Assembly (NCBI GenBank): GCA_020697715.1
Contig: JAEHCO010000001.1
Coordinates: 192,001 to 256,000, forward strand
Direction of reading: 5' to 3'
Origin: Methanobacteriota archaeon
Lineage (GTDB): Archaea; Thermoplasmatota; Thermoplasmata; SG8-5; JAGLSY01
Length of the DNA stretch: 64,000 bases
Part shown: piece by piece, positions 5,832 to 30,239 of the stretch
Position numbering within the stretch: position 1 is the first letter of the stretch
Layout: each line of letters opens with the position of its first letter
Position numbers and translations under genes: made by a program
The notes under the pieces: generated by a model
What the model was told of the DNA's origin: nothing
The model's input: only the letters and a program-made list of their open reading frames with translations
Database searches by the model: none

Positions 5832-5853
5832 TCTACCTTCCCCATATTATGTT

Positions 5854-15943: not shown

Positions 15944-18232
15944 ATGGTAGAGGAAAGCCAGCCTGTTAGTGATACGAAAGTCGAGGTCAAATTGAAGAGA
16001 GACCTCGGTCTCTTCAGTATTTTGATGATCGGGCTTGGGCCGACACTTGGTTCCACCATCTTTCTTCTTGTAGGATTTGGGCTTGAGATCGCCGGACCTG
16101 GACTTGTACTTGTTTTTGTCCTGAACTTCATTGTCACGGTCTTCACAGCCATGGCCTATGCCGAGCTCAGCAGCGCCTTCCCCGATACTGGCGGAGGATA
16201 TCTGTGGGTGAAGGAAGGTATGCCCCAGCCTATTGGTTTTCTGGCAGGCTGGATGTCCTGGTTCGGGCATTGTATCGTGACCAGTTTCTATGTCTTTGGT
16301 TTTGGGAAGGGAGTGATGTGGATACTGGAGGCGAATGAGATCGCCATACCCTTTGACGCGGATCTTCTTGTGAAATCATTGGCTGTCGCGGTGTGTTTGG
16401 TCTTCATCCTCATCAACTACAGAGGAACGAAAGAAACTGGTAAGTCCAGTATCTACATCACACTTATCCTGATAGCGATCATATCCATATTCATCATTTC
16501 CGGAGTCATCTATATAATTCTAAACCCAGGAGCGCATGGAGGGGATGTGACCTCGGTCGTCAGCAACCCGATACCAAATGGCTGGGGCTCGATCCTGATA
16601 GCTATGGGATTCACATTCATTGTTTTCGAGGGTTATGAGATAATATCTCAATGTGGAGAGGAATGTATCGACCCTCTCAAGAACGTGCCAAAGGCCAGCT
16701 GGTTATGTATCATCATATCCACCATCATATTCGTTCTGGTGGCCGCTGTTTGTACAGGGGTGATCGACTGGACGACCATCGGGCACACGGTAGCAGGGGA
16801 TGATGTCGTGGCCCATGTGGCAGACATCACCATTCCCAAATACGGAATACTACTGGTGGCCACAGGTGTTATCCTCGGAACACTGGCCGCGATCAATTCC
16901 ACCTTATTTTCATCATCCAGAGTGTCATACGCCATGGGTCGTGATGGAGCCCTTCCGGATGCCTTCGGCACACTCAGCAAAAAGAAGAACACACCTCATG
17001 TGGCCATATTCACCAGTGGAGCCATCGTCATAATGATGACATTGTTCCTCCCCATCGAGGATATCGCCGCGTCAGCCGATATCATGTTCCTCCTGCTCTT
17101 CTTCTTCGTGAACCTGGCTGCCATCACACTAAGATACAAAAGACCGGATATCAAGCGCCATTACATGATGCCCTTCTTCCCATGGGTTCCGATTATCGGC
17201 ATTGGAACAAAATTTGTCCTGGCCATAGGATTATGGTGGGAGTTCCCAATGGCTTGGGTAATTGCTGTCGTGTGGATCGAGATCGGCCTGATGGCCTTCT
17301 ATTTATATGGCGGAAAGGAAAAGATCGAAAAGACCGATCACCCGGATGAAGTTGCTGAAAGGGCGAGCAAGAAGAAGGGTAAGAAATACAAGATACTGGT
17401 ACCTGTTACAAGCGATGAGCAGAAATCCCTTGTTAAATTCGCCGCCCTGGTCGCCAGAGTGGAGAATGCGGAGGTATACCTGGTAAAGGTGATCGAGCAG
17501 GCAAAAGGAGATCACCTGGATTCGATGGCCTATAAAGAACTGGCACCTCATATCAAGGTAGTGGACAAGCTGAAGAAGATACTTGACAGAGAGCAGATAA
17601 AATGCCACAGTAAAGTCCTGATCTCCAGACTGGCTTCCGATGCTATACTGGATCTCATAAATGAAGAAAAGATCGATCTGACAATAATCGGATGGAGGGG
17701 GCAGACAAAGCCTGGTCAGATCTTCGGACACAATATTGATGAAATGGTCCAGAAGGCGAACAGTGATGTCATCGTGTTCAAATCCAAGGAGATGGGCAAG
17801 GAAGTGAAGAAGATACTCGTGGTCTCAACCCCTGAGTGGCATTCCAGTTATGCAACCAATTATTCTATCCTTATCGCGAAACAGGATTATTCCCACATCA
17901 CGATATTCAGCGCAAGCGCGACCGAGGCTAAAAGAATAGAGGAAGACAAGTATGCGGACAAATTGACACAATTATGCCATATTCATGATGTTGAGCATAC
18001 GAAGAAGGTCATCATGGTCGATAATATCGAGGATGCCATAGTGAAAGAGGCTGCTGATCATGACCTGGTTGTCTTCGGAGCCGCAGAAGAGTGGACATTG
18101 AAGAAGTATGCCTTTGGTAGCATGCAGGACAGAATGGCGAAAGGCATACAGAAACCAATACTCATGGTGAGGAAGATCACACATAGGTCATCCAGCATAT
18201 CTGATGATCCTGCATCAGATAAAAAGGATTGA
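15944..18232 (+). CDS. APC-family amino acid permease with C-terminal universal stress protein domains
   Basis: YAELSSAFP..GGGY, SRVSYAMGRDG, about 12 TMs; KILVP and two USP-like domains. Confidence 0.9.
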   Translation: MVEESQPVSDTKVEVKLKRDLGLFSILMIGLGPTLGSTIFLLVGFGLEIAGPGLVLVFVLNFIVTVFTAMAYAELSSAFPDTGGGYLWVKEGMPQPIGFLAGWMSWFGHCIVTSFYVFGFGKGVMWILEANEIAIPFDADLLVKSLAVAVCLVFILINYRGTKETGKSSIYITLILIAIISIFIISGVIYIILNPGAHGGDVTSVVSNPIPNGWGSILIAMGFTFIVFEGYEIISQCGEECIDPLKNVPKASWLCIIISTIIFVLVAAVCTGVIDWTTIGHTVAGDDVVAHVADITIPKYGILLVATGVILGTLAAINSTLFSSSRVSYAMGRDGALPDAFGTLSKKKNTPHVAIFTSGAIVIMMTLFLPIEDIAASADIMFLLLFFFVNLAAITLRYKRPDIKRHYMMPFFPWVPIIGIGTKFVLAIGLWWEFPMAWVIAVVWIEIGLMAFYLYGGKEKIEKTDHPDEVAERASKKKGKKYKILVPVTSDEQKSLVKFAALVARVENAEVYLVKVIEQAKGDHLDSMAYKELAPHIKVVDKLKKILDREQIKCHSKVLISRLASDAILDLINEEKIDLTIIGWRGQTKPGQIFGHNIDEMVQKANSDVIVFKSKEMGKEVKKILVVSTPEWHSSYATNYSILIAKQDYSHITIFSASATEAKRIEEDKYADKLTQLCHIHDVEHTKKVIMVDNIEDAIVKEAADHDLVVFGAAEEWTLKKYAFGSMQDRMAKGIQKPILMVRKITHRSSSISDDPASDKKD

Positions 18233-18288: not shown

Positions 18289-19656
18289 TCAATTGAAGGA
18301 TGATAGTGCTATTCCATCCTTCTTCAATCTATCGTGAAGAGCCTTGATGAGCTCAGATCGTACAATATCTCCCTGGGATGGGTCCAAAACCCAGGCATTG
18401 ACACGGTAGATCGACGTATCCTTTGATATGGACAATAATCGGACAGTTATCGGATACTTAGGATCCTGGCCAGATACACCTGCGGATGAAGCCGTGATAG
18501 TATTCTCAATAACCTGGAAATCAACTTCTGAGCTTAATGGTATATCGATATCCAATCTAAGACCATCGACTGTAGTGAAGTTGTGAATTGTGGAATCCAT
18601 GACCTTGTTATTTGGAATATCCATGAAATCTCCGAAATTGGTCCTCACCCTTGTGAAGATCAGGTGCTGCTCAACTACCTCTCCAACATCCTCATCACCC
18701 AATTTGACCCAGTCGCCTTTGTTAATGCTGTCAGTAAGCAGGAGTATGACACCGGATATGGCATTCTTCATGCCTGGGGAGGTTCCGATTATCAGTAAGA
18801 TGGAAAGAGTTAATCCAATTATGACAAAGACAACTAGTTCCATATGCATGAATCCAAGAATATCCAGTATGATCATCAAGGTTAAAACAAAAGCCAGCCA
18901 GTAAAGCAAATATCTGATCAAGTTCTTCAGCAGATCGATGAGTTTATTTGGGAATTTCGTAGGCTTGGACTTGAAGTCATCCAGCATCATTGACAAAAGC
19001 TTTCCTACAAGGTACAGTACCACAATAATAGTGATGAGCGAAAGAACTTCCTGAAGGATCAGTGTCCCATCCATCCCAGTTATGCCAGTGACCTCGAATA
19101 TCTGATCTCGAACTTCCTGATTGGGGGTGGTTAGAAGACCTACAAGGAAAGCGATGACTATCCCGAAGAATAGAAGTATGTATTTGACAAAGCCCTGGGC
19201 GAAGTCCAGTATACCTGACTTCACCATATTATCAGGATCTCCTTTTGCTTCTTCACCCTTAATGGAGATCCAGACCGAGCTGAGCTGGGCTAGCAGTAAG
19301 AAACTGAAAAAGGTCACTCCAGCCATTAATATGAATATATAATCTAGAGTTGTTTCAAAGAGAGTGAGGAAAAGTTCGATCTCCAGTAATGCGCCTACAT
19401 AAAGTATGGAGATAAGAACGAAGATGATGCTCATTACCCGAACTGCCGTGAATACGGAGTCCAATGTTCGGTCATCCACATATGTTCTTTCTTTCAATTT
19501 GAGAAAACTGATATATCTTGATATATGAGAGAAGATAAACAGCAATACGGTGAACAAGACTATACCAATTACCACTAGGAGTGCGTAGTCTCCTGGTCCT
19601 GCTTCGTTCATGATACCAGTCATTGTTTCCGAACTGCTTGCTAACATATTATCCAC
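18289..19656 (-). CDS. mscS: MscS-family mechanosensitive channel with an extended N-terminal TM region
   Basis: NAISGVILL...GDWVKLG...G.V.....T......IPN. Confidence 0.85.
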   Translation of the reverse strand: MDNMLASSSETMTGIMNEAGPGDYALLVVIGIVLFTVLLFIFSHISRYISFLKLKERTYVDDRTLDSVFTAVRVMSIIFVLISILYVGALLEIELFLTLFETTLDYIFILMAGVTFFSFLLLAQLSSVWISIKGEEAKGDPDNMVKSGILDFAQGFVKYILLFFGIVIAFLVGLLTTPNQEVRDQIFEVTGITGMDGTLILQEVLSLITIIVVLYLVGKLLSMMLDDFKSKPTKFPNKLIDLLKNLIRYLLYWLAFVLTLMIILDILGFMHMELVVFVIIGLTLSILLIIGTSPGMKNAISGVILLLTDSINKGDWVKLGDEDVGEVVEQHLIFTRVRTNFGDFMDIPNNKVMDSTIHNFTTVDGLRLDIDIPLSSEVDFQVIENTITASSAGVSGQDPKYPITVRLLSISKDTSIYRVNAWVLDPSQGDIVRSELIKALHDRLKKDGIALSSFN

Positions 19657-19719: not shown

Positions 19720-22700
19720 TTACTGGGGCAGGGATGCTTTCCTCTTCCTGCGAACTATGCTGAATATGACCATTGGCATGAAGATGACGAATGCAAGTGC
19801 GCTGTATTCGGATATGATGATCACCATCGTACCAGATGCGAACATCACCCATGTTATTCCAGCATTGGCATTACTGCCTGCTGTGAAATGTGGCGCACCG
19901 ATCAGGACATCTATTTTATTATCTCCATCCAGGTCGCCAACCTTACAGACAGACCATCCAAAGTGTGAACTGGCATTGGCAGAATAATTTACATAATCCG
20001 CATTGGCGGCGCTTATCGCACTAGCCATAGTGGCAGAGCCATTGAAGATATACACCGCTCCTTTTCCACTACTGTAATACGGTGCTCCGACAATGACATC
20101 GTCGTATGTGTCACCATTGAAGTCATCCAAGCCATGAACGGAGTAGCCGAACTTATCACCGGAGGTTTCGCCTGTGAGAGTGACGGCTATCTTGCAATAC
20201 TTGTAGCTTATAGTTATTGAGGAAAGGACTGGAGTATAGCAAACCTGTGTTGTGCTCATCACTATCTTGTATCGGAGATCGTCGCCCTGGGCTTCCCCGC
20301 CTGTGAAAGAATACTCAATTCCATCAGAAACAGCGGTGTAAGTGGTTCCACCATCACGTGACACGGAGACCGTCATGCTGGCTCCGTTCGTCACCGCTGT
20401 CCAATCCGCGGTCATTGATGTTATCTGACCACTGACCGCCGTTGTGGAAGATTCATAGGTTCCTGGTGTGTTGTATTTATACACATTCACATCATCAATC
20501 CAGACATCTGACATCCCTGCTGTTCCAGAAAGGAAGGTTATGGCACTCATAGAGTCCACTGTAGCGACATTGGCCATAAGGGCATCCGTGTATTCCAGTG
20601 TACCGTTGATGAACATATCGAACTGATCATTGTCACAATCTGCTACAACGGTTATAGTGTACCAGCAACCTGTAGCATAGGGCATTATTACCTCGGTACT
20701 GTCTCCGCCCTGGAAGTCCCTAACACAGATATCACCATCAATGAACTGCATCTGGAAAGCAAAGGTCGCGCCATCGAATCCAGCCATGGAAAAGTAGTCA
20801 TCCGCGGTCTGAGATTCGAAATATATCTTGAACTCCATACAGACAAAACCTGTAGCATCCGTGAAAGTGTCATCTATCTGGATGTTCTGGTCCACACTGT
20901 TCGTATCGTTAAAGTTAAGACCATTAGAGGCCGAGACCGAGTAAGTGTCATCAACAGCCACATCACACCCAGTACCTTCTGCCGTTATGGTCCACCCAGT
21001 TGGATCATTCCCCACGGTCTCTCCGGTATCAAAATTATCTTCATATGTTATGGTCTTATCGAGCATCAGGTCTCCACCGGAGGAGGCGTATATGTTTGTG
21101 TTAGGATTTGCCGATGCCAGACTGCTTCCAGTAGCCGTGAAATCAGACTGAGATGTATCTGTCCTAGAGCCAGTTCCATCTATGTCCCCTCCCTTGTATA
21201 TGTAGGCATTGCCATTTGAAGTTCCAGGAGCTCCAACTATAACATCATCATTGCCACTATTATCTACATTTCCAGCACTGGCCACGCTCCAGCCAAATTT
21301 ACTCTGAACAGCGGCCCCGGAAACATGGAGGTACATGTGATCGATATAAACAGTATCAAGGTTGGAATCTCCAGACGTGGCATCCACCACCCCAATATAT
21401 AGAGTTCCAGTATAGGCATCCAGGGTGGCGTCCGAGTATGTCTGATATACATCATCATCACTTGTCTTGGTCATATCCAGCATCTTGGTCCATGTATCTA
21501 CAGCTCCTGTTCCAGCAGTGGAATAATAAAATTCGAAATTCTCACTATCCAGATCTGTCCTGTACCCATCAAGATAGAAGGTGGAATCTGTCCCAGCAGT
21601 AACGGACATGGTCCATTTATGTTCTAATCTAGTAGAAGCGATCGATACGGTGGTGTTCACACACATGAAATCGATTTCTAAAGTGTCTGCCTGACTATTG
21701 GCAGAAGTATTGTCAATAGCGCCGACATAGAACGCTCCTCCGGTGAAGCCATCTGCATCCAGATCGAAGGTGTAAGTTGTCTGGGCCTGGGCGTCGACAG
21801 AGAACATGTAAGTCCATGCGCTAGTTCCAACATCTCCAGAATTTGTTGTGGCATAATAGAACATAAATTCATCATTTGGACTGCCACCTGAATCCCAGCC
21901 AGCACGTAGTTGGAACTCATACTGATCGGCAGATGCGGGTGTTGATGTGAAGGTCCATTTATGTTCAAGGCTGTAATGTGGCACAGCTGTACTGTCCATG
22001 GTCACATTCACATCATCCAGCCATACTGCTTCACCACTTCGCATTGATGCAGCACGCCACTGGATCTGGAAAGCACTATGCAAATATTGCGAGTCGGTTA
22101 TAGTCTCTTGATAATTGTACCATGTATCCTCGGTAGTTTGCAGGGTTGCCAAATCTTCTATGAGGTCCCAGGTTCCGGTATTGTCATAGTAATAGAGGGT
22201 GTAATCATTGGGATCGGCATCATCTTCGCGCCACCAAAAGTCAACATCAATGCTTGTTGCAGATGAAGTATCCATTGATGGGGATTGAAGAGTGCCAGAT
22301 AAGCCAGGATTTGCACCATCGAAATCTGCAGAATATGAGCCCGTATGGAACTGATCTGTTTCTGGATTCCATACTGTTCCTGCGGCTTCAGTCCAATCGG
22401 TGGGCCAAGAGGTGCTCTCAAAGCTCTCTGTGGGAATCAGAGTAGTAGTACTGCTGCCCCCAGTGATCTGGTACTCTACAATGTCCTGGGTTGTTCCATC
22501 CTGGTCTGCCGTATCAGTGTAATCATTTACATTTGAGCCAGAATCTGATTCATTATATGTTTCTGAAGTAGCAAAATCCTCATCATAGACAGCTGCAGAA
22601 CTTACCTCAGTTATGCTCTGATAGCCATCATTCTGCGTCTGAGTATTGGTGTGGGTGCCGGAGACCGTGCCAGTGTCTGCAACATCAGCCCCTGTGGTGT

Positions 22701-25700
22701 AATCGGTCGTCAAGAAGGCTTTTTCCGATAGTAGCTCCTTATATGGAACTGATGTGAAATACAAATGATCCACATATAGAGTGTCATTAACAGTATTGCC
22801 TTCACTACTATCAGTATCAATGACTCCCACATAGACAGTTCCTGAGAGACTGCAAAGAGTGTCATCCGTATATGATTGATATGCGTCATTTTCTGTTGTC
22901 TTGGTCACGGTCAGCATCTTGGTCCAGCCAGAGTCACCTACTGTTCCTGTGCCCGTTGTTGAATAATAGAAGTCAAAGTCATCTCCTTCTGTATTGGAAG
23001 TGTGGTTTGCCTCGAGGTAGAACGTGTTCTGAGATCTGGAGGATATGGACACATTCCATTTATGCTCCAATCGGCTTACTTTCGGAGTGTAGGTCACCAC
23101 TATATCGTCCACGTATGCATCCTCATTGAGAGCGGATCTGTACAGATAGAATCGTATTGCCAGATTTGGATTGTTGTTGGCAGAAGCTGGCAGGAGGAAA
23201 GATTTGTCTGCATAAGCCAAGTCCCCTGTCAGTTCTTCAAGTATGACATAGCCGGAACCGACATCATACTCTGCTCTGAAATAATCCACTCCCGAATCCA
23301 ACCCGGTTGCGGCAACGGAGTAAGATAGAGTTATGCCCTCTTTTCCAGTTGAATCTATTGTCCTGGCTATGTGATTTGTAGTAACTGAATTTCCGCTTCC
23401 CAGGTCGCAAGAATATGTGCCAGTATTGACGTTCTCAGTACTCGCAGCAGGATCCCCAGTGACAGTCCATCCACCAGTCGTCAGATCGCCGCTTTCAAAT
23501 CCATCACTGAAGAATGATATGCCGCCCCCTGAACCGCCTCCCCATACTTCTTCAATCTCTTCATAACCATCATTACTGGATTGGGTACTGGTGTAGGTAT
23601 TGGTCAAGGTCCCACTGACATTCCAATCTGTATCGGCAGTCTCCAATACAGGTAGACTGAACACATAGGCTCTCTCATTACCTGGTTCACCGATTATGAC
23701 CTCGCTTCCTGCTGTGCCATCCGTGTTGCCAGCATCGGAAACAGAGAAGCCGAAATTACCATTGGACACTGTACCGTTCAATGATACATCTGCTGTCGCG
23801 GCTGTTGTTGGAATGCTTCCGTCTCCGTAGAAGATATAGGCCTTACCTTTGCCCGAGTTGGCATATGGAGCGCCGACAATGACATCGTCATTATTGGCAT
23901 TATTGTAATCACCTGCTCCACTCACGCTCGCCCCAAAGTCATCCCCACTGGCTCCACCAGTAATAGTGACATTCGCGCTCGTAGATGCTAGGTCCCAACT
24001 GCCATCACCGGTAACCTCCTCCCAGTTGAGACCCTTTCCATAAAATATGTACGCATTGCCATTTGTCGTATCTGGCGCGCCCACTATAATATCGTCATAA
24101 CCATCATTATCTACATCACCAGCATCACTCACATCCCAACCGAAATGGTCGCCCGACGCCGCGCCCGTTATGGTGACATTGGCAAATGCCGCCTGCATGT
24201 AATTGCCATTCGATGAGTTGAAACCGTAATATCCGAAGAATACGTAAGCGCGACCTTCATTGCCGCTTGCACCTGGTGCTCCAACCACCACATCGGGGTA
24301 ATTGTCATTATTGACATCGCCAGCATATGACACGTTCCATCCAAATAGATCACTGGCCGCTGATCCATTACCTGATGTGACCTCACTTAACTGTAGCATA
24401 TCCCCGGCCATTGGAGCTTCAGGATCAGGAGCGGAGCGAGTTACTGGTAATGTAAGGGGAGTGTCTTCCTCAATGGCTGTATCTGAATCCTCATTCCATG
24501 AGATGGTCTCGAAAGAGGCTGATATATCCTCCACAGTCTGTATATCCAGCATGACCTCCAATTGTTTGGTATCATATTGGAAATCAGGCATCTGGATGTC
24601 TGCCCAGCTCCATTCTCTCTGCGATAGGCCTGTGAACTCTCTGGTAAATGAAGATTTGATCTCACCGTATTTACCACTGAATTCTATAATGTAATCCACA
24701 CCCAGCCCGGAGCGAGAATATCCCGTAGAGGTGTCATTGTCCACATCCACATAGATCGTGGAGGTGTCATAGCCATTCAATGGTGGTATGTGGTCAGGAC
24801 CGATGTATTTGGTCACTTTGGTATCCTCATTATAGAGTTCTTCATCAGTTCCGCCTGCATCGTGGTCTATCTCGCCATCACCATCATCGTCATTGGATTC
24901 CGAGTCCGGGATCCCATCATTATTGAAATCATGTTCATAACCAGGTTCATACTGATCCAATATACCATCACCATCACTATCTACCTGGGCAGTGGTGGTG
25001 GATGGAGGTGGTGGCGTGGAAGAAGGTGCCCTTGCAGTGGCAGTTAGAGGTACACTAGCCCCGCCCATGATATCGCCATTTGACCTCATATAGAAGGCTA
25101 ATTTTGTACCATCATTATAAGCGCCATATCTGCTGATATCTATGGAGGTGCTGGATCCTGTATCAGGCTCTCCTATTTCATCATTGGAAGCGGAGGACCA
25201 ATCACTGAAACCACCGTCTATCATTACCCCGAACGGAACAACATCAATGTATCCAAGGTCATAACTGGAAGATTCGGTATTTAGAGAAGCTACTCCATCG
25301 ACCACTGATATTCCAGCAGAGCTTGTTATTTCCGCGCCCAGTGTTGTTCCGGAGCTGGCAGATGCTGATATATCCACTTCCAATGTAAAGCTCTGTGTCT
25401 GTCCTGCAGGGATGGTGGTTCCCATGGCGAGGCTTAATGTTGATGATAATTGTGATGTCTCTACCACGGTGCTACCTGCGCTATTCAATACCCTGACAGA
25501 AGATATTGATGACAATGGAATCGTTCCTTTTAATGTGACCTGGACAGAATCCAGGACCGCATCTATTTCTGTTGCTGTGACATCGAAAGCGAGAAGCGAT
25601 TGACCAGATCCAGAAAGGATCTCCGAGCACGAACTTCTCTGTTCGACAGTGAGTATGGCTAAAGAATTACTGACCAGATGATCTGAATGATCATGGTATC

Positions 25701-28395
25701 CGTCATATGATTGTGAATGTACGGCGATCGTCACAGGGCCAGGATCCACCATGTCCAAAGCAGACCAAGCCACTTGTGTCTCGACCGTCTGTGCTTGTGA
25801 TCTGGCAACTATGCTTCCAACCGAGGTGAAGCCACGCCAATCATCATTGTCACTTCCTCCGAAAGAATTGAGCTGGGAGCTGATCACGTTTCCGTTCCAA
25901 CCCTTTATCTCTATCATGAAATTAGCGCCCATCTCTTCAAATTTGTAGCCTGTTGTGGGATCTTGGTCCGTGTCAATGAACAAGTGGAAAATATCAACAA
26001 GACCAGCATCGTTAATGGGCTCGCCTGCCATAATCTGGCCACCATCCACCACGTCGATGTAGAATGATAGGTATTTGTCATCATTGTTCTCCGCGGCCAC
26101 ACCGACAATATCTATATTGGGATTGAAATCCACACCTTCTGATGATGATGTGGTCTCACCGACACCTTCCCAGTCGGAGAAATCTCCATCGATCACTATG
26201 CTATCATTTTCGACTGCTGGTGGGGAGAAAGACACCATGGGTACGAGCAGAAGGAGAACGGCCACCAAAGGAATGATGTATAGTTTCCATTTATTGCGAC
26301 GGGCTTCTCTATTGAATCTAGCTCCTCCAAGACCATTGGTCATACCGGTCCCATTTGTCAAACCATTAGTCATGCCACTTCTTAATGCCCTCAGACCATT
26401 GGTAAGGCCATTTGTAACACCATTCGTAAGACCATTGGTAAGGCCATTTGTAACACCATTCGTGAGGCCGTTGGTCAGACCATTCGTCATGCCGTTTGTA
26501 CGACCGAGACCATTTGTCAAACCATTAGTCATGCCGTTTGTACGACCGAGACCATTTGTCAAGCCATTAGTCATGCCGTTTGTACGACCGAGACCATTTG
26601 TCAAGCCATTAGTCATGCCGTTTGTGCGACCGAGACCATTTGTCAAGCCATTGGTCATGCCGTTTGTACGACCGAGGCCATTTGTCAAGCCATTAGTCAT
26701 ACCGTTTGTACGACCGAGGCCATTTGTCAAACCATTGGTCATACCATTGGTTCTTCCCTGGCCCTTACTGCTAGCTTTGGCCAGGCCATTCGTCATGCCT
26801 TTACGAAGGCCATTCGTCATACCCCTGTCCTTCGCTACTGGCGACTTGGATTGAAGTGGCTTGGTGACAGATTCTATCATTCTCGCTTCATCATCTGAAA
26901 CAGGCTCGGGTGCGTGAGGCGTGGCCTCCGCGCCTTCTGAGAATAAATGGGCCAGTTCATCGATCGCCGATTCCTCTTCTTCTGAAATGTCAGGAACAGG
27001 GGCCTTGAAAACCTCTGGTTCAGAATCCAGAGGTTTAACAGTTGATTCGATCAGATCGATCTCATCATCATCGAGATCCAGAGAACTCAGATCTTCAGAA
27101 AGATCAAGGTCTAATGAATCTAATTTACTCGTTATGCTATCCAAGATCTCTGATTCTTCCTCAGAGACCTCTGTTATATTTCCTGGCAGGTCCTCATCTT
27201 TGTCATCCAGCTCAAGAATGTCATTTTGGATCTGTCTCTGCTCTGCCAGCCAGACCTCCTTGTCCACCTCGGAATCATCCTCCACGGATTCCAATTCAAG
27301 GAGTAGATCTTCCATATCATCATCTGTTTCGGTGATGGTGGTCGTCACACCAAGCTCCATGGCTCTTTTATAACAAGATGCGGCCTTCTTATGTTCGCCC
27401 ATCTTGGTGAAGACCTCGGCCTTCATGTTCCAAACACCAGGATAATTAGCATCGATCTTGGTGATCTCGTTCAGAGCCTGAAGAGCCTCGTCATTCTTAT
27501 CCATCTTTGACAATACCTCGCCTTTCAGGAACCATTGTTCTATGTCTGAAGGATCTGAACTTATAACAGCCTCTATATCGGCCAACTGTGAAGCCAGATC
27601 AGAATCAACATCATCTTCTGCTTCATCTTTGAACTTCATTCCACATTGATAACAGACATTATCTCCCACTTCCAATATCGTAGCACAAAGAGGACACGCG
27701 AATTCCTCGACTGTTTCTTCAATGTTCAATTCATCTATGACTGGTTGTCCTATCCCCTCGGATTTCTCATCCAGTGTGACGATTATCTTGATCTTCTGAG
27801 CGGACTTAAGACCTATGCCTTCTACCGAGGACAGCTCATCCACACTTGCCTCTCTCAGGTCGTCCACTGACCTGAATCCCGCATTGTATAGCGCTTTTCC
27901 CTTTAGAGATCCCAAACCAGGCACTGAGGTCAATAATTGAATGGCCTTTGTCTGTCGCTGTCTATGCGGATCAGCCATTTCCTCGGATACCATTTGCTCC
28001 AATATTTGATCCACACTTTCTCTCGATGACAGTGTATGACTGAGTGGATGGGCTTGACTGGATGAGGTATCTTTGAGGTTTTTAAGAAGTAGATCACTGG
28101 AACCATTGTAATTTCCAATTCCAGCTTGGGCTCGAGCCATGTTCAAAGTAAGTCCCGGAGTATTTGGAGCCAAAGCATTGACCTTGTCAAAACATTTGAG
28201 TGCTTCTTGATCTTTACCAAATGATAAAAGGGTCTCTCCATGAGCCATCCATAGTCTTGGATTATTAGGATTGGCATTGAGCAATCGCTTTTGTCTTTCC
28301 AGAAGTGATTCACTAACCTTGACAGGCTTGGTATCTGAGGCTTTTCCCCATTTGGCGATAAAATCCTCAGTGAATCGCTTTTTCTCTGGTGCCAT
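19720..28395 (-). CDS. Giant membrane-spanning protein: TPR-HhH-Zn ribbon-TPR-acidic-(TNG)n-TM-ectodomain with 7 FG-GAP repeats and a PEF-CTERM-like tail
   Basis: Single ORF (track start 28473; ATG 28395 has a GGGAG SD); TPRs, VPGLG/VEGIG HhH, CPLC..CYQCG, TM LYIIPLVAVLLLLVPMV, GDxNxDxYxDxxVGAP repeats, C-terminal ISEY-TM-RRKRK. Confidence 0.85.
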   Translation of the reverse strand: MAPEKKRFTEDFIAKWGKASDTKPVKVSESLLERQKRLLNANPNNPRLWMAHGETLLSFGKDQEALKCFDKVNALAPNTPGLTLNMARAQAGIGNYNGSSDLLLKNLKDTSSSQAHPLSHTLSSRESVDQILEQMVSEEMADPHRQRQTKAIQLLTSVPGLGSLKGKALYNAGFRSVDDLREASVDELSSVEGIGLKSAQKIKIIVTLDEKSEGIGQPVIDELNIEETVEEFACPLCATILEVGDNVCYQCGMKFKDEAEDDVDSDLASQLADIEAVISSDPSDIEQWFLKGEVLSKMDKNDEALQALNEITKIDANYPGVWNMKAEVFTKMGEHKKAASCYKRAMELGVTTTITETDDDMEDLLLELESVEDDSEVDKEVWLAEQRQIQNDILELDDKDEDLPGNITEVSEEESEILDSITSKLDSLDLDLSEDLSSLDLDDDEIDLIESTVKPLDSEPEVFKAPVPDISEEEESAIDELAHLFSEGAEATPHAPEPVSDDEARMIESVTKPLQSKSPVAKDRGMTNGLRKGMTNGLAKASSKGQGRTNGMTNGLTNGLGRTNGMTNGLTNGLGRTNGMTNGLTNGLGRTNGMTNGLTNGLGRTNGMTNGLTNGLGRTNGMTNGLTNGLGRTNGMTNGLTNGLTNGVTNGLTNGLTNGVTNGLTNGLRALRSGMTNGLTNGTGMTNGLGGARFNREARRNKWKLYIIPLVAVLLLLVPMVSFSPPAVENDSIVIDGDFSDWEGVGETTSSSEGVDFNPNIDIVGVAAENNDDKYLSFYIDVVDGGQIMAGEPINDAGLVDIFHLFIDTDQDPTTGYKFEEMGANFMIEIKGWNGNVISSQLNSFGGSDNDDWRGFTSVGSIVARSQAQTVETQVAWSALDMVDPGPVTIAVHSQSYDGYHDHSDHLVSNSLAILTVEQRSSCSEILSGSGQSLLAFDVTATEIDAVLDSVQVTLKGTIPLSSISSVRVLNSAGSTVVETSQLSSTLSLAMGTTIPAGQTQSFTLEVDISASASSGTTLGAEITSSAGISVVDGVASLNTESSSYDLGYIDVVPFGVMIDGGFSDWSSASNDEIGEPDTGSSTSIDISRYGAYNDGTKLAFYMRSNGDIMGGASVPLTATARAPSSTPPPPSTTTAQVDSDGDGILDQYEPGYEHDFNNDGIPDSESNDDDGDGEIDHDAGGTDEELYNEDTKVTKYIGPDHIPPLNGYDTSTIYVDVDNDTSTGYSRSGLGVDYIIEFSGKYGEIKSSFTREFTGLSQREWSWADIQMPDFQYDTKQLEVMLDIQTVEDISASFETISWNEDSDTAIEEDTPLTLPVTRSAPDPEAPMAGDMLQLSEVTSGNGSAASDLFGWNVSYAGDVNNDNYPDVVVGAPGASGNEGRAYVFFGYYGFNSSNGNYMQAAFANVTITGAASGDHFGWDVSDAGDVDNDGYDDIIVGAPDTTNGNAYIFYGKGLNWEEVTGDGSWDLASTSANVTITGGASGDDFGASVSGAGDYNNANNDDVIVGAPYANSGKGKAYIFYGDGSIPTTAATADVSLNGTVSNGNFGFSVSDAGNTDGTAGSEVIIGEPGNERAYVFSLPVLETADTDWNVSGTLTNTYTSTQSSNDGYEEIEEVWGGGSGGGISFFSDGFESGDLTTGGWTVTGDPAASTENVNTGTYSCDLGSGNSVTTNHIARTIDSTGKEGITLSYSVAATGLDSGVDYFRAEYDVGSGYVILEELTGDLAYADKSFLLPASANNNPNLAIRFYLYRSALNEDAYVDDIVVTYTPKVSRLEHKWNVSISSRSQNTFYLEANHTSNTEGDDFDFYYSTTGTGTVGDSGWTKMLTVTKTTENDAYQSYTDDTLCSLSGTVYVGVIDTDSSEGNTVNDTLYVDHLYFTSVPYKELLSEKAFLTTDYTTGADVADTGTVSGTHTNTQTQNDGYQSITEVSSAAVYDEDFATSETYNESDSGSNVNDYTDTADQDGTTQDIVEYQITGGSSTTTLIPTESFESTSWPTDWTEAAGTVWNPETDQFHTGSYSADFDGANPGLSGTLQSPSMDTSSATSIDVDFWWREDDADPNDYTLYYYDNTGTWDLIEDLATLQTTEDTWYNYQETITDSQYLHSAFQIQWRAASMRSGEAVWLDDVNVTMDSTAVPHYSLEHKWTFTSTPASADQYEFQLRAGWDSGGSPNDEFMFYYATTNSGDVGTSAWTYMFSVDAQAQTTYTFDLDADGFTGGAFYVGAIDNTSANSQADTLEIDFMCVNTTVSIASTRLEHKWTMSVTAGTDSTFYLDGYRTDLDSENFEFYYSTAGTGAVDTWTKMLDMTKTSDDDVYQTYSDATLDAYTGTLYIGVVDATSGDSNLDTVYIDHMYLHVSGAAVQSKFGWSVASAGNVDNSGNDDVIVGAPGTSNGNAYIYKGGDIDGTGSRTDTSQSDFTATGSSLASANPNTNIYASSGGDLMLDKTITYEDNFDTGETVGNDPTGWTITAEGTGCDVAVDDTYSVSASNGLNFNDTNSVDQNIQIDDTFTDATGFVCMEFKIYFESQTADDYFSMAGFDGATFAFQMQFIDGDICVRDFQGGDSTEVIMPYATGCWYTITVVADCDNDQFDMFINGTLEYTDALMANVATVDSMSAITFLSGTAGMSDVWIDDVNVYKYNTPGTYESSTTAVSGQITSMTADWTAVTNGASMTVSVSRDGGTTYTAVSDGIEYSFTGGEAQGDDLRYKIVMSTTQVCYTPVLSSITISYKYCKIAVTLTGETSGDKFGYSVHGLDDFNGDTYDDVIVGAPYYSSGKGAVYIFNGSATMASAISAANADYVNYSANASSHFGWSVCKVGDLDGDNKIDVLIGAPHFTAGSNANAGITWVMFASGTMVIIISEYSALAFVIFMPMVIFSIVRRKRKASLPQ
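26332..26823 (-). repeat. Coding tandem repeat: 7 x 42-bp units (GRTNGMTNGLTNGL) plus further TNGx tetrads
   Basis: Gly-Arg codons recur every 42 bp (26501-26753); units differ at synonymous positions. Confidence 0.95.
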
Positions 28396-28597
28396 GGTCT
28401 CCCTGAATCCCTTGCATAGGTGATCGTGGAAATGTGACGCCTGTTTATTTATCGGTCTATTAGGCGTGCGCAATATTGTTTAATTTACCATATACATTAA
28501 AACATAATGCATGGGGATATAATAAGGTTCTATGCAATATATTACATCGACTATTTTAATTGTTAATATTTATATAACAAAAAAGTTTTAACAATAC

Positions 28598-29326
28598 TTA
28601 GGCCAATGCTCTCTCGATCGGATAATAGGGGATCTCCAAACGTTCAAGGTTATTGCCTATGTTTATCGTGATGACAAGGCCCCTTCCCTTTATTTCCTTT
28701 ATTTCAGGATTGAGGAATTCGGCCTTCATTCTCTTAATAAGACTTGCCCTGAAGGTCTTCAGGCTTGATCTTTCTATCCTTGCCAAGTCCTTGATCTTAC
28801 TTGTCGGGTAATATCTCAGGTGCCTGCCATCCTTCAATACAGATATCAAGCCAGAACCTTCCAATCTATCGAACATAGATCGGGAATGATTCTTATCTTC
28901 CAGGGCCATCTTCAATGCCCCTGTGCTTGAGCCGGGTTCCTTCACTATCTGCTTGAAAACAATATTATGAGAAGGGTCGTTCAAAAGACTGAGAGCTCTT
29001 TTGGAATCGTCCTCTTTCAGCATACCTGTTGGGAAATACACCATCCTGTTGAAATAAGATTTACTCTGCACATAATCTCTATCCTCAAGAGCATCCAGAT
29101 GCCAGATGACAGTTGGTCGAGAAAGGGCAAGTTCTGAAGATATACGAGAAACAGTGATGCATGGTGTTAGACATAGAAGCTGGAATATATTTTTCCTATT
29201 ATGGTTCGAGATCACACTGGCTTTCCTTCGAGAGCTTGTGGTCTCTTCTTTATCAGGGAGCTTGTCCTCGACAACCCTTTTCAATGCATCTCCTATCTTT
29301 TCCATTGGAGACCGCCTAGCCCTCAT
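28598..29326 (-). CDS. Tandem winged-HTH (ArsR-like) transcriptional regulator
   Basis: RKNIFQLL...P...SRISSELALSRPTVIWHLDALE, plus a second wHTH (EPG...LEGSGLI...DGR). Confidence 0.8.
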   Translation of the reverse strand: MRARRSPMEKIGDALKRVVEDKLPDKEETTSSRRKASVISNHNRKNIFQLLCLTPCITVSRISSELALSRPTVIWHLDALEDRDYVQSKSYFNRMVYFPTGMLKEDDSKRALSLLNDPSHNIVFKQIVKEPGSSTGALKMALEDKNHSRSMFDRLEGSGLISVLKDGRHLRYYPTSKIKDLARIERSSLKTFRASLIKRMKAEFLNPEIKEIKGRGLVITINIGNNLERLEIPYYPIERALA

Positions 29327-30239
29327 CGATCAGCTCATATTCTGAAAGAATTTGAGTCAATATATACTCTGGATCCAGATGGCCAATATCCTCTTCTGAT
29401 AATTTATTGATGGTCCTGATAAGGCTCTGCTTGACCTTGGGTGTCAGCTTCGCCTTCTTATCTGCGGGCAATTGCTCAAATATGCCATTCAGCAATGAGG
29501 TCATGTCCACAATGTTCTTTGGAACTTGATTGGCAAGTTTGGCTCTTTGAGTGATTATGCCACTTCCTCTAACGATCGTGTACGGATGCCAAAATTTGCT
29601 GTGCCTGCTACTCCGGCACTTGATGATCTTCATTTCTCTTCTTTCAGGGCTATCGTGACTTCTGTATCTGAGGTGAATGACATTATCAGCCAGGTACATC
29701 GGAATTACCAACTCCGGTCCTGATAGATCACCAACAACACCATGTTCCTCCAGGGTGCACACCACCGTTCCTATGTTCCTCGTCCCCCTGAGAAGTGATG
29801 AAACTAAGTCTCTTTGCTCGTACTTATCCTCGGTGGACCAGAGCACGGGTGTAAGGGGATCGATGACTATCCTGGCATTATATCCTTGCCATTCATCAAC
29901 AAAGCCCGCCAATTCTGTTTTGATAAAATCCGAGAACTCGCGGCCACCGGCATCGACGAAGATCAGCATCCCTTTATCAATATAATCCTCAACATCTTCC
30001 CAACCCATTTCTATCACGCCCTTGATGATCTGCTTCGGGCTCTCATCAAGAGTTATGAATATGGCATCTTCTCCCAATTCCAGACCTCGCTTCAGGAAAT
30101 AAGTTGCAAAAGTGGTCTTGCCAGCACCGGAAGTTCCGATAACCGCAGTTATCGTATTCTCATTAATGCCTCCGTCCATCAGACCGTTCAGTCCATAGAC
30201 ACCACTCTTGATCTTTTTCAAAGGTATGTGGCTCACCAT
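29316..30239 (-). CDS. KaiC/RAD55-family ATPase with C-terminal helical extension
   Basis: SGVYGLNGLMDGG, GTSGAGKTT, TLDE, VIDP, LADNVIHL, KCR. Confidence 0.87.
   Translation of the reverse strand: MVSHIPLKKIKSGVYGLNGLMDGGINENTITAVIGTSGAGKTTFATYFLKRGLELGEDAIFITLDESPKQIIKGVIEMGWEDVEDYIDKGMLIFVDAGGREFSDFIKTELAGFVDEWQGYNARIVIDPLTPVLWSTEDKYEQRDLVSSLLRGTRNIGTVVCTLEEHGVVGDLSGPELVIPMYLADNVIHLRYRSHDSPERREMKIIKCRSSRHSKFWHPYTIVRGSGIITQRAKLANQVPKNIVDMTSLLNGIFEQLPADKKAKLTPKVKQSLIRTINKLSEEDIGHLDPEYILTQILSEYELIDEG

Follow-up and report, generated by a model that had tools for sequence, protein, structure and literature searches.

The 64,000-nucleotide stretch of DNA analyzed here (the window) contains a single intact open reading frame (ORF) at 19720..28473 of the minus strand, the strand that carries all features of the giant gene and its upstream neighbors described below. 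An ATG at position 28395 opens a giant protein of 2,891 amino acids (aa); this start is backed by the conserved N-termini of relatives, which are of the type "MAPxKKRFTEDF." All the features listed in an earlier, sequence-only reading are present in this one intact frame (19720-28395, minus strand). Among them are TPR matches at residues 39 to 94 and 271 to 348 (Pfam), IDGxFxDW motifs at 735 and 1059, D.D.DG motifs at 1139, 1169, 1427, and 2211, and LEHKW motifs at 1776, 2143, and 2257. The product of the frame is a real surface protein of giant size, and its source is an uncultured, non-methanogenic Thermoplasmata archaeon. A methanogen identity was dropped since McrA was not found in the 93.8%-complete genome.

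Two genes precede the giant gene. The first (29316..30239) codes for a single-domain KaiC-like ATPase of 307 aa (Pfam PF06745 KaiC, 128.5 bits) that matches KaiC in the Protein Data Bank (PDB; E = 2e-36) and the archaeal proteins PH0284, PH0186, and SSO2452. Its Walker A motif, G(T/S)SGAGKTT, is invariant in 10/10 sequences, and the mean column identity is 80%. It overlaps by 11 nt with the second gene (28598..29326), which codes for a tandem-wHTH protein of 242 aa with winged-helix regions at residues ~41 to 97 and ~120 to 186. Matches of this protein are to Pfam HTH_24 (41-87) and Penicillinase_R (150-186) and to an NCBIfam ArsR/SmtB-type HTH (37-97); it contains no hydrophobic segment (the top 19-residue hydropathy is 1.35) and is soluble. 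As read from the sequence, an AT-rich spacer of 202 bp (28396..28597) separates the wHTH stop codon from the giant ATG and is a candidate for a promoter of the giant gene's own.

The giant protein begins with a peptide motif, "KKRFTEDFIAKWGK" (28342..28383; residues 5 to 18), in which K6, F8, T9, D11, F12, K15, and W16 are invariant in alignment A2. All 11 relatives examined have this motif, as has P0153. The motif's only other match among ORFs of at least 100 aa in the genome is in a second giant preceded by KaiC and wHTH genes, on contig C31, with a pattern fitted after both genome copies had been seen. It is absent from eight family members near which those genes were not found and from a third giant, on contig C22. 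When residues 1 to 140 were compared by BLASTP with the motif-plus-TPR region of the C31 giant, the TPRs aligned and the motif regions stayed unaligned. The combination of N-terminal motif and TPR block was found only in members linked to the KaiC and wHTH genes.

The predicted cytoplasmic domains follow the motif. TPR block 1 (28066..28323; residues ~25 to 110) matches Pfam TPR_14 (46-89) and TPR_CcmH_CycH (39-94) and is helical in the AF2 model, with a pLDDT of ~90. An (HhH)2 domain (27787..27939; residues 153 to 203) matches Pfam HHH_5 (PF14520) with 50.5 bits against a cut-off of 27, and its AF2 pLDDT is ~85. Its hairpins read "PGLG" and "EGIG," G160, G162, G193, and G195 being kept in at least 90% of 14 sequences. 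By sequence, it matches in the PDB the N-terminal extension of haloarchaeal eL32 (1e-7), the Hjm/Ski2-type helicase 2zj2 (1.5e-7), RadA, and Pol X/lambda. Domains of this kind bind the DNA backbone without sequence specificity and may also mediate protein-protein contacts. Next comes a Cys4 zinc ribbon (27631..27705; residues 231 to 255) with CxxC at 234 and 248; its match to Pfam Zn_ribbon_3 (E = 7e-5) scores 22.5 bits, below the cut-off of 27, and C234, C237, C248, and C251 are invariant across the same number of sequences, 14. TPR block 2 (27355..27624; residues 258 to 347) is matched by TPR_19 (275-327) and TPR_8/TPR_1 (321-348) and has an AF2 pLDDT of ~90. A protein homolog search with residues 1 to 380 was dominated by TPRs and returned four proteins, one of them named "tetratricopeptide (TPR) repeat protein."

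The head is joined to the membrane by an acidic linker (26836..27348; residues ~350 to 520; 27 to 33 D+E per 100 residues), which is probably disordered, and by a basic, membrane-adjacent (L/M)TNG repeat region, predicted to be cytoplasmic (26326..26826; residues 524 to 690). The latter contains 32 TNG units, counted within residues 527 to 689. At the DNA level it is a 42-bp tandem repeat (26480-26742) of 6.3 copies with 95% matches, the copy number being as assembled and uncertain. Relatives that reach the first transmembrane (TM) segment have 12 to 33 NG dipeptides before it.

The protein has only two hydrophobic segments, at residues ~703 to 725 (TM1) and ~2850 to 2884; the ectodomain is therefore ~2,125 aa long. 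TM1 is flanked by "RFNREARRNKWK" on its N-terminal side and by an acidic stretch on its C-terminal side. Together with the basic cluster (26221..26325; residues 691 to 725), it is kept in relatives and is predicted to act as a signal-anchor with the N-terminus inside. Six K/R immediately precede TM1, and the 15 residues that follow it contain none. The second segment is followed by "RRKRK." The cytoplasmic location of the N-terminal ~700 aa, as well as the anchoring at both ends, had been proposed before, and both proposals agree with this prediction, which was made from hydropathy and the positive-inside rule only. The distribution of N-X-S/T sequons, 21 in the ectodomain versus 3 in residues 1 to 702, is consistent with it.

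Two readings would undo this picture. In one, the gene is an assembly or annotation artifact, in which a cytoplasmic TPR/HhH gene was joined to a surface-protein gene or the frame was held open by a collapsed repeat. The 42-bp tandem repeat with its 95% identity does lie in the junction region, and short-read assemblers can collapse or expand such repeats. However, the same colinear layout, with the repeat, TM1, and the ectodomain's membrane-proximal pedestal included, was found on contigs of 11 relatives in other assemblies, where four ORFs of 1,993 to 3,204 aa are complete (L011, 2,875 aa; L014, 3,204 aa; L015, 2,947 aa; and L021, 1,993 aa), and in two paralogs within the genome. Since colinear full-length relatives occur in other assemblies, a misjoin is ruled out and the ORF is real and non-chimeric; the artifact reading is largely refuted and extremely improbable, and doubt is limited to the copy number of the repeat. 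In the other reading, the N-terminal part lies outside the cell, where it serves as a DNA receptor of the ComEA kind. A weak NCBIfam comEA match (E = 1.6e-3) and the occurrence of HhH2 domains outside cells, in ComEA, speak for it. Yet the protein has no signal peptide and no hydrophobic segment ahead of residue 703, the charges flanking TM1 and the C-terminal "RRKRK" both fit an N-inside topology, the sequons are concentrated past TM1, and the head carries a Cys4 zinc ribbon and TPRs. We consider an extracellular N-terminus very improbable.

The ectodomain starts with a predicted extracellular pedestal (24436..26220) made up of IDGxFxDW module 1 (residues 726 to 925), a spacer (926 to 1050) that reads as Ig-like, and module 2 with a DxDxDG insert (1051 to 1320). 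Its alignment has 29 invariant columns, and the same pedestal is present in the C31 and C22 giants and in shorter family members. Module 1 is a β-sandwich in the AF2 model (pLDDT 63.7), for which Foldseek found nothing in the PDB at E ≤ 0.001. The ethylbenzene dehydrogenase γ subunit, CBM9, and glucodextranase came closest (E = 7.8e-3 to 4e-2; TM scores of 0.34 to 0.42), a weak hint at a CBM9/DOMON-like sandwich rather than an assignment. No usable match to residues 726 to 1320 was obtained in the ESM Atlas.

Beyond the pedestal, Pfam FG-GAP (PF01839) matches six stretches with 99 bits against a cut-off of 22.1, the best stretch being 2749-2784. Combining Pfam with a profile of the repeats themselves, repeats 1 to 4 were placed at residues 1346 to 1600 (23596..24360). 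Repeat 5 (21154..21303; residues 2365 to 2414; E = 2.4e-17 against the profile of repeats 1 to 4) and repeats 6 and 7 (19861..20163; residues 2745 to 2845; E = 4.6e-14 and 5.2e-11 with the repeat profile) are separated from these and from each other by two inserts. Insert 1 (21304..23595; residues 1601 to 2364) carries three LEHKW modules and, at 2264-2353, a weak NCBIfam choice-of-anchor J match (E = 1e-3). The repetition of the LEHKW modules shows only in motif matches and in off-diagonal matches when relatives are compared by tblastn; with the giant protein compared to itself by BLASTP, zero internal repeat pairs appeared at E ≤ 1e-6. Insert 2 (20164..21153; residues 2415 to 2744) is a lectin/CBM-like region in which residues 2529 to 2625 match Pfam Sialidase-like_CBM (E = 3e-4, under the cut-off). 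In all six complete sequences (this giant, L011, L015, L014, L021, and P0145), the number of FG-GAP repeats is exactly seven, split by inserts at differing positions: 4+1+2, 2+2+1+2, 3+1+3, and 3+4. Judging from these repeat counts, the distal head is probably one seven-bladed, integrin-α–like FG-GAP propeller with large binding modules inserted between its blades, the last of which would lie beside the C-terminal anchor. The earlier label "integrin-like" is thus apt for the head.

The protein ends in a tail resembling a sorting signal (19720..19860): "..IIISEY," a hydrophobic helix of ~18 residues, "RRKRK," and the stop codon, i.e., three parts, in the order short motif, TM helix, and basic cluster, at the extreme C-terminus. 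The tails of relatives read VPVPEF, VPEF, IPEF, or IIPEF at the same place (L014, L015, L021, and P0145 read PEF). The 60-aa tail gave no match at E ≤ 1 to the PEF-CTERM model TIGR03024 (at least 23 bits together with PEF were required), and it is not among the seven TIGR03024 matches of the genome at E ≤ 1. The proposal of a PEF-CTERM–like signal therefore stands as far as homology to the PEF-CTERM tails of relatives goes and falls as regards the tail itself, which has SEY instead of PEF and fails TIGR03024. The archaeosortase substrates known to us begin with a signal peptide, unlike the giant protein, which starts with a 700-aa predicted cytoplasmic head and a signal-anchor. The genome encodes two archaeosortases, ArtA and an ArtC-like one. 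The latter, a 415-aa ORF on contig C1, passes the exosortase/archaeosortase signature TIGR04178 (55.8 versus 23 bits), and its best family is TIGR03762 ArtC, at 64.8 bits under a cut-off of 100. According to a passage that cites Haft et al. 2012 (PMC5244752), PEF-CTERM proteins go with archaeosortase C. The three-part C-terminus, the PEF of relatives, and the ArtC-like archaeosortase are like that system; the SEY motif without a TIGR03024 match and the sub-threshold sortase are unlike it.

As the sequences show, the giant is one member of a Thermoplasmata family in which the chassis is constant and the distal head varies. The order of the chassis is (HhH)2–Zn-ribbon–TPR head, acidic linker, xNG repeats, TM, two-IDGxFxDW pedestal, variable head, and PEF-type tail. 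A constant N-terminal part with a variable ectodomain had been suggested in the sequence-only reading and was borne out by the homolog survey, while the view of the architecture as exceptional was not, since the genome alone encodes three giants that have HhH2, Zn ribbon, linker, xNG repeats, TM, two-IDG pedestal, variable head, and PEF-type tail in common. Of the 301 genomes sampled from the class, 37 have a family match at E ≤ 1e-25. Within the order, 20/21 genomes have such a match (4/4, 12/13, 2/2, and 2/2 in families f1 to f4), and among the 301 sampled genomes the full head (residues 1 to 380) is present in this order only. In the class's other families, shorter members of the protein family (1,150 to 1,320 aa) are present. 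A soluble HhH2-Zn-TPR paralog is present at about one per genome.

The KaiC-like ATPase, the tandem-wHTH protein, and the giant protein form a cassette that is conserved across the order. Among the 11 loci of a first set, retrieved with the closer alignment A2, the order KaiC, wHTH, giant on one strand was observed in 10; at the eleventh, the contig breaks off within the wHTH region. The wHTH gene is present in 11/11 of these loci and in L034 to L036. The gene order is the same in L034 and L036, and L035 is the same contig as L021. When distinct loci with enough upstream sequence were counted, KaiC was upstream of the giant gene in 12/12. Across cassette loci, identity is 59 to 95% for KaiC and 32 to 80% for the giant's head. 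The paralogous cassette on C31 codes for a KaiC 52% and a wHTH protein 25% identical to those in the window, followed by a giant of 2,301 aa. The cassette was not found within ~7 kb of seven more distant family members (L027 to L033; two of the contigs are short) or beside the C22 giant. Linkage to KaiC thus characterizes only some members of the family and is an addition to the chassis rather than one of its properties. The conservation of a downstream MscS-like gene extends no further than the same-genus locus L011, and the gene was for this reason placed outside the cassette.

KaiC-family domains are also fused to the same parts. The genome contains an HhH2-TPR-KaiC fusion (L025), and P0145 combines a KaiC-family domain with the full chassis. 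The P0145 domain, with 34% identity over 71 aa and a degenerate Walker A motif ("GPSGVEK"), is only distantly related and is not the KaiC of the cassette. Co-folding of KaiC with head residues 1 to 380 gave a score of 0.52 (runs of 0.49, 0.52, and 0.57; best control, 0.00), with at least 43% of contacts shared between runs and a partner pLDDT of at least 65. The mark used is reached by 58/80 solved complexes and 2/110 mismatched pairs. The score is a pass in the weak range: passes at or below 0.60 include just 7/80 solved complexes and both passing mismatches, so that such a pass is wrong more often than right unless the guess is already likely.

The reading that we slightly favor is a giant double-anchored surface protein with a propeller head, encoded in a KaiC-wHTH cassette, with KaiC docking on its cytoplasmic head. 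The exposed head would bind a ligand, a surface, or a neighboring cell. The cytoplasmic head would dock the KaiC-like ATPase, probably via the N-terminal "KRFTEDFxAKW" motif and the TPR block. Depending on its state, the ATPase could then control how active the wHTH regulator is, perhaps at the 202-bp region upstream of the giant gene; alternatively, the ATPase may set the state of the surface protein from inside. HhH2 may provide a nucleic-acid contact that is not sequence-specific, or a protein contact. A "one-component" device, as proposed earlier, does not fit, since the conserved unit consists of three genes and HhH2 is the only nucleic-acid-binding fold in the giant chain. A DNA-sequence-specific output, if there is any, lies more plausibly in the separate wHTH protein than in HhH2. 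Outside-in signaling by the giant protein is an inference; plain transcriptional control of the giant gene would explain the conserved adjacency equally well.

Such control is part of a purely structural reading, in which the giant is an envelope or adhesion protein whose head moors to nucleoid DNA (through HhH2) or to proteins (through TPRs), KaiC and wHTH regulate transcription only, and no information passes through the giant. The head is also present in relatives from the class's other families and in the C22 giant, near none of which KaiC/wHTH was found, and it therefore has a KaiC-independent role; the soluble HhH2-Zn-TPR paralogs and the AT-rich spacer, a possible promoter that the wHTH protein could control, point the same way. 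Against this stand the restriction of the N-terminal motif and TPR block to cassette-linked members, the KaiC fusions, the weak co-fold score (0.52 versus 0.00), and a conservation of KaiC far above the need of an ordinary local regulator, and we regard the structural reading as somewhat unlikely. It appears quite improbable that the giant is a membrane-tethered factor whose ectodomain is shed and whose TM1 is cut by a site-2 protease, freeing the HhH2-Zn-TPR head to act on DNA. This would make use of the nucleic-acid-binding fold in the head, of the conserved prolines in TM1 of relatives (e.g., "..IIPLVAV..VPM.."), and of the three M50 protease loci in the genome, one of them in the window at 45106-45615. 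However, (HhH)2, not being sequence-specific, is a poor output for a transcription factor, and ~350 residues of linker and repeats would remain on the freed head. The link to a site-2 protease suggested in the earlier reading was not upheld either: none of the three M50 loci is adjacent, and the gene in the window is ~17 kb away and unlinked.

KaiC docking on the cytoplasmic head could be part of a more elaborate scheme, an archaeal counterpart of integrin-type signaling, which we consider unlikely as a whole. In such a scheme, the propeller head would be held in a loop between the two membrane anchors; mechanical load or ligand on the propeller would be passed through TM1 and a turn-rich (x-T-N-G)n spring to the cytoplasmic HhH2-Zn-TPR head, whose N-terminal motif would recruit or release a KaiC-like hexamer and so switch the wHTH protein. 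An inside-out direction is conceivable as well, in which the ATPase would alter the adhesive state. If the cells are wall-less, the scheme would resemble the surface "leg" proteins of gliding mycoplasmas, which are ATPase-driven.

In integrin α, the seven-bladed FG-GAP propeller has an I-domain inserted between blades. The giant resembles it in its seven FG-GAP repeats, large inter-repeat inserted domains, single TM helix, and plausible role in surface adhesion. In contrast to integrin α, its cytoplasmic part is N-terminal and huge, its orientation is opposite, it has a second, C-terminal anchor, and its inserts are elsewhere; we know of no β-subunit partner. The likeness appears to be at the domain level only, with nothing in the sequence to suggest common descent of the whole protein.

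To our knowledge, little is known of information transfer from surface to genome in archaea beyond borrowed bacterial two-component systems, and we know of no KaiC-like ATPase with an identified surface input. The cassette is a concrete, testable three-protein system, comprising a surface protein whose exposed head is integrin-like, a strongly conserved KaiC-like ATPase, and a DNA-binding regulator, and hints at a link between cell surface and gene control. According to passages in PMC5847659 and PMC6393860, KaiC-like ATPases were proposed as archaeal signal-transduction hubs (Makarova, Galperin and Koonin 2017, mBio). As far as those passages describe such modules, the likeness lies in the single-domain KaiC-family ATPase with intact Walker A, its conserved pairing with a wHTH protein, and the fusion of KaiC to TPR/HhH, and the difference lies in the third partner, here a giant double-anchored surface protein. 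The architecture and the cassette were not found described in literature searched outside Makarova et al. 2017 and its supplements, which may list the neighborhood. What appears undescribed is the seven-repeat split head and the KaiC-wHTH cassette; the parts themselves are already known.

RadA/Rad51-type proteins combine an N-terminal (HhH)2 domain with a RecA-superfamily ATPase. While the two parts are on separate polypeptides in the cassette, one of them a membrane protein, and there is no sign of recombination, (HhH)2 again stands alongside an ATPase of the RecA superfamily (KaiC family), there is a weak match between the HhH2 domain and the N-terminus of RadA, and the HhH2-TPR-KaiC fusion in the genome unites such parts in one chain. 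The family also reveals a modular plan for giant archaeal surface proteins, in which a constant head and pedestal would carry a seven-blade propeller that takes varied inserted binding domains; this plan can guide the annotation of the many giant ORFs in metagenome bins of Thermoplasmata that are unnamed or labeled "TPR repeat."

The giant protein is encoded by a single open reading frame (ORF) on the minus strand (19720..28473 in the ORF listing of the window). Translation from the ATG at 28395, the end coordinate chosen in the sequence-only reading, yields 2,891 amino acids (aa), and this start is supported by the N terminus M..KKRFTEDFxAKW, which is common to 11 relatives. The domains listed in that reading were recovered by Pfam: TPRs (residues 39-94 and 271-348), a tandem helix-hairpin-helix domain (HHH_5, residues 153-203; 50.5 bits, cut-off 27), FG-GAP repeats (99 bits), and a zinc ribbon (residues 231-255) that scored below its cut-off (22.5 bits, cut-off 27) and whose four cysteines are invariant across 14 sequences. 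Its list of motifs also agreed with our motif count, which placed IDGxFxDW at residues 735 and 1059, LEHKW at 1776, 2143, and 2257, D.D.DG at 1139, 1169, 1427, and 2211, and 32 TNG units within residues 527-689. A 42-bp tandem repeat (window 26480-26742; 6.3 copies, 95% matches) underlies the TNG region and specifies its 14-residue unit; its copy number differs between relatives.

The window (contig C11:192001-256000) belongs to a 2.12-Mb genome in 34 contigs that is 93.8% complete and in which McrA was not found. Archaeal neighbor genes encode a Cdc48-type AAA protein, an adenosine-specific kinase, and pyruvate:ferredoxin oxidoreductase, and related contigs are labeled as uncultured Thermoplasmata, Methanomassiliicoccales or Thermoplasmatota MAGs. 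A misjoin between the two halves of the gene, a possibility raised with the original prediction, is excluded because relatives from other assemblies have the identical colinear layout; four of their ORFs are complete (L011, 2,875 aa; L014, 3,204 aa; L015, 2,947 aa; and L021, 1,993 aa). The copy number of the 42-bp repeat may be wrong in a short-read assembly and is the only point about the gene that is still uncertain; that the gene as a whole is an assembly artefact is exceedingly improbable given the layout of these relatives. A hydropathy scan with a 19-residue window detected only two hydrophobic segments: TM1 (residues ~703-725), with six K/R within the 12 residues before it and an acidic stretch after it, and a C-terminal segment (residues ~2850-2884) followed by RRKRK. 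From hydropathy and the positive-inside rule, both ends of the protein are predicted to be cytoplasmic, as had been proposed for the N terminus, and residues 726-2850 to be outside. The distribution of N-X-S/T sequons, 21 in the outside part versus 3 inside, fits this topology. An extracellular N terminus, which would conflict with both the flanking charges and the sequon counts, is very unlikely.

Queried with residues 1-380, an exhaustive HMMER search retrieved 14,165 proteins at E ≤ 1e-3, most of them generic TPR proteins. The whole cytoplasmic head was matched colinearly by few proteins (P0002, with 80% identity, and P0003-P0006; P0002 is the same sequence as L011, and P0005 the same as L021), and many matched just the HhH2-Zn ribbon-TPR submodule (residues ~150-360), at their own N terminus. 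Matches at E ≤ 1e-25 occur in 37 of the 301 sampled genomes of the class, and within this sample the full 1-380 head is confined to the window's own order, in whose families any match at this threshold was seen in 4/4, 12/13, 2/2, and 2/2 genomes. Five further families contain the submodule in ORFs of ~950-1,240 aa. As read from the sequences, the recurrent layout begins with optional extra Zn ribbons, HhH2, a Zn ribbon, and TPR. An acidic linker and xNG repeats of the LTNG, RVNG, or INGL type lead to a basic cluster with a TM helix, beyond which lie IDGxFxDW modules, a P-x-F type tail, a second TM helix, and a closing basic cluster. Similarity to the TPR2 block (E values of 1e-6 to 8e-4) is also seen in two TPR-rich ORFs of 458 and 613 aa at window ~4600-6150 (G000:C11:196638-198135) and is probably generic to TPRs.

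The studied genome encodes three giants of this family: the studied one (2,891 aa), one on contig C31 (2,301 aa), and one on contig C22 (1,693 aa). All three have HhH2, at least one Zn ribbon, the linker, NG repeats, a TM helix, a pedestal of two IDG modules flanking a spacer, with a DxDxDG-rich insert in the second module, and a PEF-type tail at the end. Their distal parts differ, with FG-GAP repeats and inserts in the studied giant, DUF11 repeats in the C31 giant, and another repeat in the C22 giant. The survey of homologs thus bore out the earlier expectation of a constant N-terminal part with a variable ectodomain, and the membrane-proximal pedestal proved constant too. In the C31 giant (paralogous cassette at G000:C31:47445-56058; L022, L026), HhH2 is accompanied by ~ten Zn ribbons and TPR; RVNG repeats, a TM helix, the same pedestal, its DUF11 repeats, and an IIPEF tail complete the chain. 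The C22 giant (G000:C22:50041-55122; L023) has a repeated head of ..PHISYYN..LKYAKW units and an APEF tail. In a soluble paralog (L024, G000:C28:146277-147872), Zn ribbons, HhH2, a further Zn ribbon, and TPR are followed by an acidic linker, and the C-terminal helical domain is conserved and has no Pfam match. Relatives of this paralog are P0047, P0087, P0100, P0105, P0111, P0127, and P0149, and second matches in the genome sample point to ~1 copy per genome across the order.

To count FG-GAP repeats in the ectodomain, a profile was built from the four contiguous repeats at residues 1346-1600 of the studied giant. It detected exactly three more, at residues 2365-2414 (E = 2e-17), 2745-2800 (E = 5e-14), and 2808-2845 (E = 5e-11), for a total of seven. 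Seven repeats were found in all six complete sequences (the studied giant, L011, L015, L014, L021, and the library protein P0145), split in different ways (4+1+2, 2+2+1+2, 3+1+3, and 3+4). Because the count is fixed at seven while the insertion points move, the distal head is probably one seven-bladed propeller of the integrin-alpha type that serves as a scaffold for inserted domains. These six sequences share the repeat count and the presence of inserted domains with integrin alpha subunits. The last blade stops a few residues short of the C-terminal signal, which would place the propeller close to the loop's membrane end.

AlphaFold2 modeling of residues 1-380 (14 sequences) gave domains that are confident singly (pLDDT ~90 for TPR1, ~85 for HhH2, ~80 for the Zn ribbon, and ~90 for TPR2) in a relative arrangement that is not fixed (pTM 0.33), and the modeled cytoplasmic head resembles a string of beads. 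The solved structures nearest to HhH2 by sequence are a haloarchaeal eL32 extension, an Hjm-type helicase, RadA, and Pol X/lambda. Pedestal module 1 is predicted to form a beta-sandwich (pLDDT 63.7, pTM 0.67) with only weak, CBM9/DOMON-like matches in the PDB.

Directly upstream of the giant gene and on the same strand lie the gene for a KaiC-like ATPase (29316-30239, minus strand) and, overlapping it by 11 nt, the gene for a soluble protein containing two winged-helix regions (wHTH; 28598-29326, minus strand). When both proteins were used in tblastn searches, the order KaiC, wHTH, giant was found in 10 of 11 loci of relatives, the exception being L018, whose contig ends inside the wHTH region. 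Two more loci, L034 and L036, have the same order, and L035 and L021 are one contig; the cassette is thus present in 12/12 distinct loci having enough upstream sequence. Identity across loci is 59-95% for KaiC, 32-80% for the head of the giant, and 23-83% for wHTH, and the KaiC Walker A motif is invariant. A paralogous second cassette (KaiC 52% and wHTH 25% identical) precedes the C31 giant. The C22 giant is without an upstream KaiC/wHTH pair, and a search around seven more distant family members, two of them on short contigs, likewise turned up no pair; the KaiC link is therefore confined to part of the family.

Three further observations bear on the KaiC link. An N-terminal motif, [FILV][TS]xDF[IVLM]x[KRQ][WF], whose pattern was fitted after both copies had been seen, is restricted, among ORFs of at least 100 aa in the studied genome, to the two giants linked to a cassette, where it lies ~80 residues ahead of a TPR. 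All 11 relatives and P0153 also carry it; the C22 giant and eight family members not found in a cassette lack it. BLASTP did not align the motif regions of the studied and C31 giants. The motif is a lead for a putative KaiC connector. KaiC-family domains are also fused to parts of this family. In L025 (G000:C11:486799-488169), a 456-aa protein, HhH2 and TPRs are joined to a KaiC-family ATPase domain; identity to the cassette KaiC is 24%. P0145 (2,142 aa) has the full chassis, FG-GAP plus FG-GAP_3 repeats, and a tail reading IIPEF, all behind a distant KaiC-family domain (34% identity over 71 aa, Walker A degenerate); its Pfam matches also include MEDS and DUF7504. Last, co-folding of the KaiC-like ATPase with residues 1-380 scored 0.52 (runs 0.49, 0.52, and 0.57) versus 0.00 for the best control, which counts as weak support. 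In calibration, the mark was reached by 58/80 solved complexes and 2/110 mismatched pairs, and at scores ≤0.60 only 7/80 solved complexes passed, together with both passing mismatches. Agreement between runs covered at least 43% of contacts, partner pLDDT was at least 65, and no interface was reported.

Starting from the observed architecture, family, cassette, and repeat counts, we propose a loop-shaped giant protein, anchored at either end, whose binding head is built on a propeller and whose cytoplasmic head serves as the docking site of the KaiC-like ATPase. ATPase and wHTH would link transcription to the state of the surface protein or, alternatively, determine this state from within the cell. 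The NG repeats, of which relatives have 12 to 33 NG dipeptides ahead of TM1, may provide a flexible, basic juxtamembrane spacer; Asn-Gly sequences favor tight turns and deamidate readily. It is possible, though we hold it less likely than such coupling, that the giant is a purely structural anchor under ordinary transcriptional control. Release of the head through intramembrane proteolysis is a distinctly unlikely alternative. The parts of the proposed device are all of known kinds, and their combination appears to be undescribed: a literature search covering article full text returned no description of the architecture or the cassette, and an earlier mention is possible in work on archaeal KaiC-like ATPases or in supplements. 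Of three public relatives returned for residues 1-380, two are unnamed and the third bears the name TPR repeat protein.

Other genes of the window include an MscS-type channel (18289-19656, minus strand), 63 bp downstream of the giant gene, and a fusion of an amino-acid permease with two universal-stress-protein domains (15944-18232, plus strand). Among loci reaching that far, both accompany the giant gene only in the same-genus L011. A 419-aa ORF (13515-14774, minus strand) has no Pfam family at E ≤ 0.001. At 45106-45615 (minus strand), ~17 kb from the giant gene, lies an M50 (site-2 protease) domain, part of a 537-aa ORF; linkage to the giant gene was not seen.

The tail of the studied giant consists of a motif, a helix, and a basic cluster. 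It had been described as PEF-CTERM-like, and this description holds for its layout and for the VPVPEF or IIPEF found in relatives at the site where the studied giant and its same-genus relative have IISEY; the tail itself did not match the PEF-CTERM model at E ≤ 1. One protein only, on C30, passed the PEF-CTERM cut-off in the studied genome. The genome encodes ArtA (120 bits, cut-off 75) and an ArtC-like enzyme that passed the family signature and missed the ArtC cut-off (64.8 versus 100). According to a statement in PMC5244752, citing Haft et al. 2012, archaeosortase C recognizes PEF-CTERM. As judged from sequence, processing of the studied giant by an archaeosortase is possible. The ArtC-like gene (C1:5365-6612) is located in L009 (G000:C1:1445-10499) beside a 1,242-aa ORF, and ~3 kb from it lies a further paralog of the cassette wHTH gene (C1:9765-10499; 23% identical).
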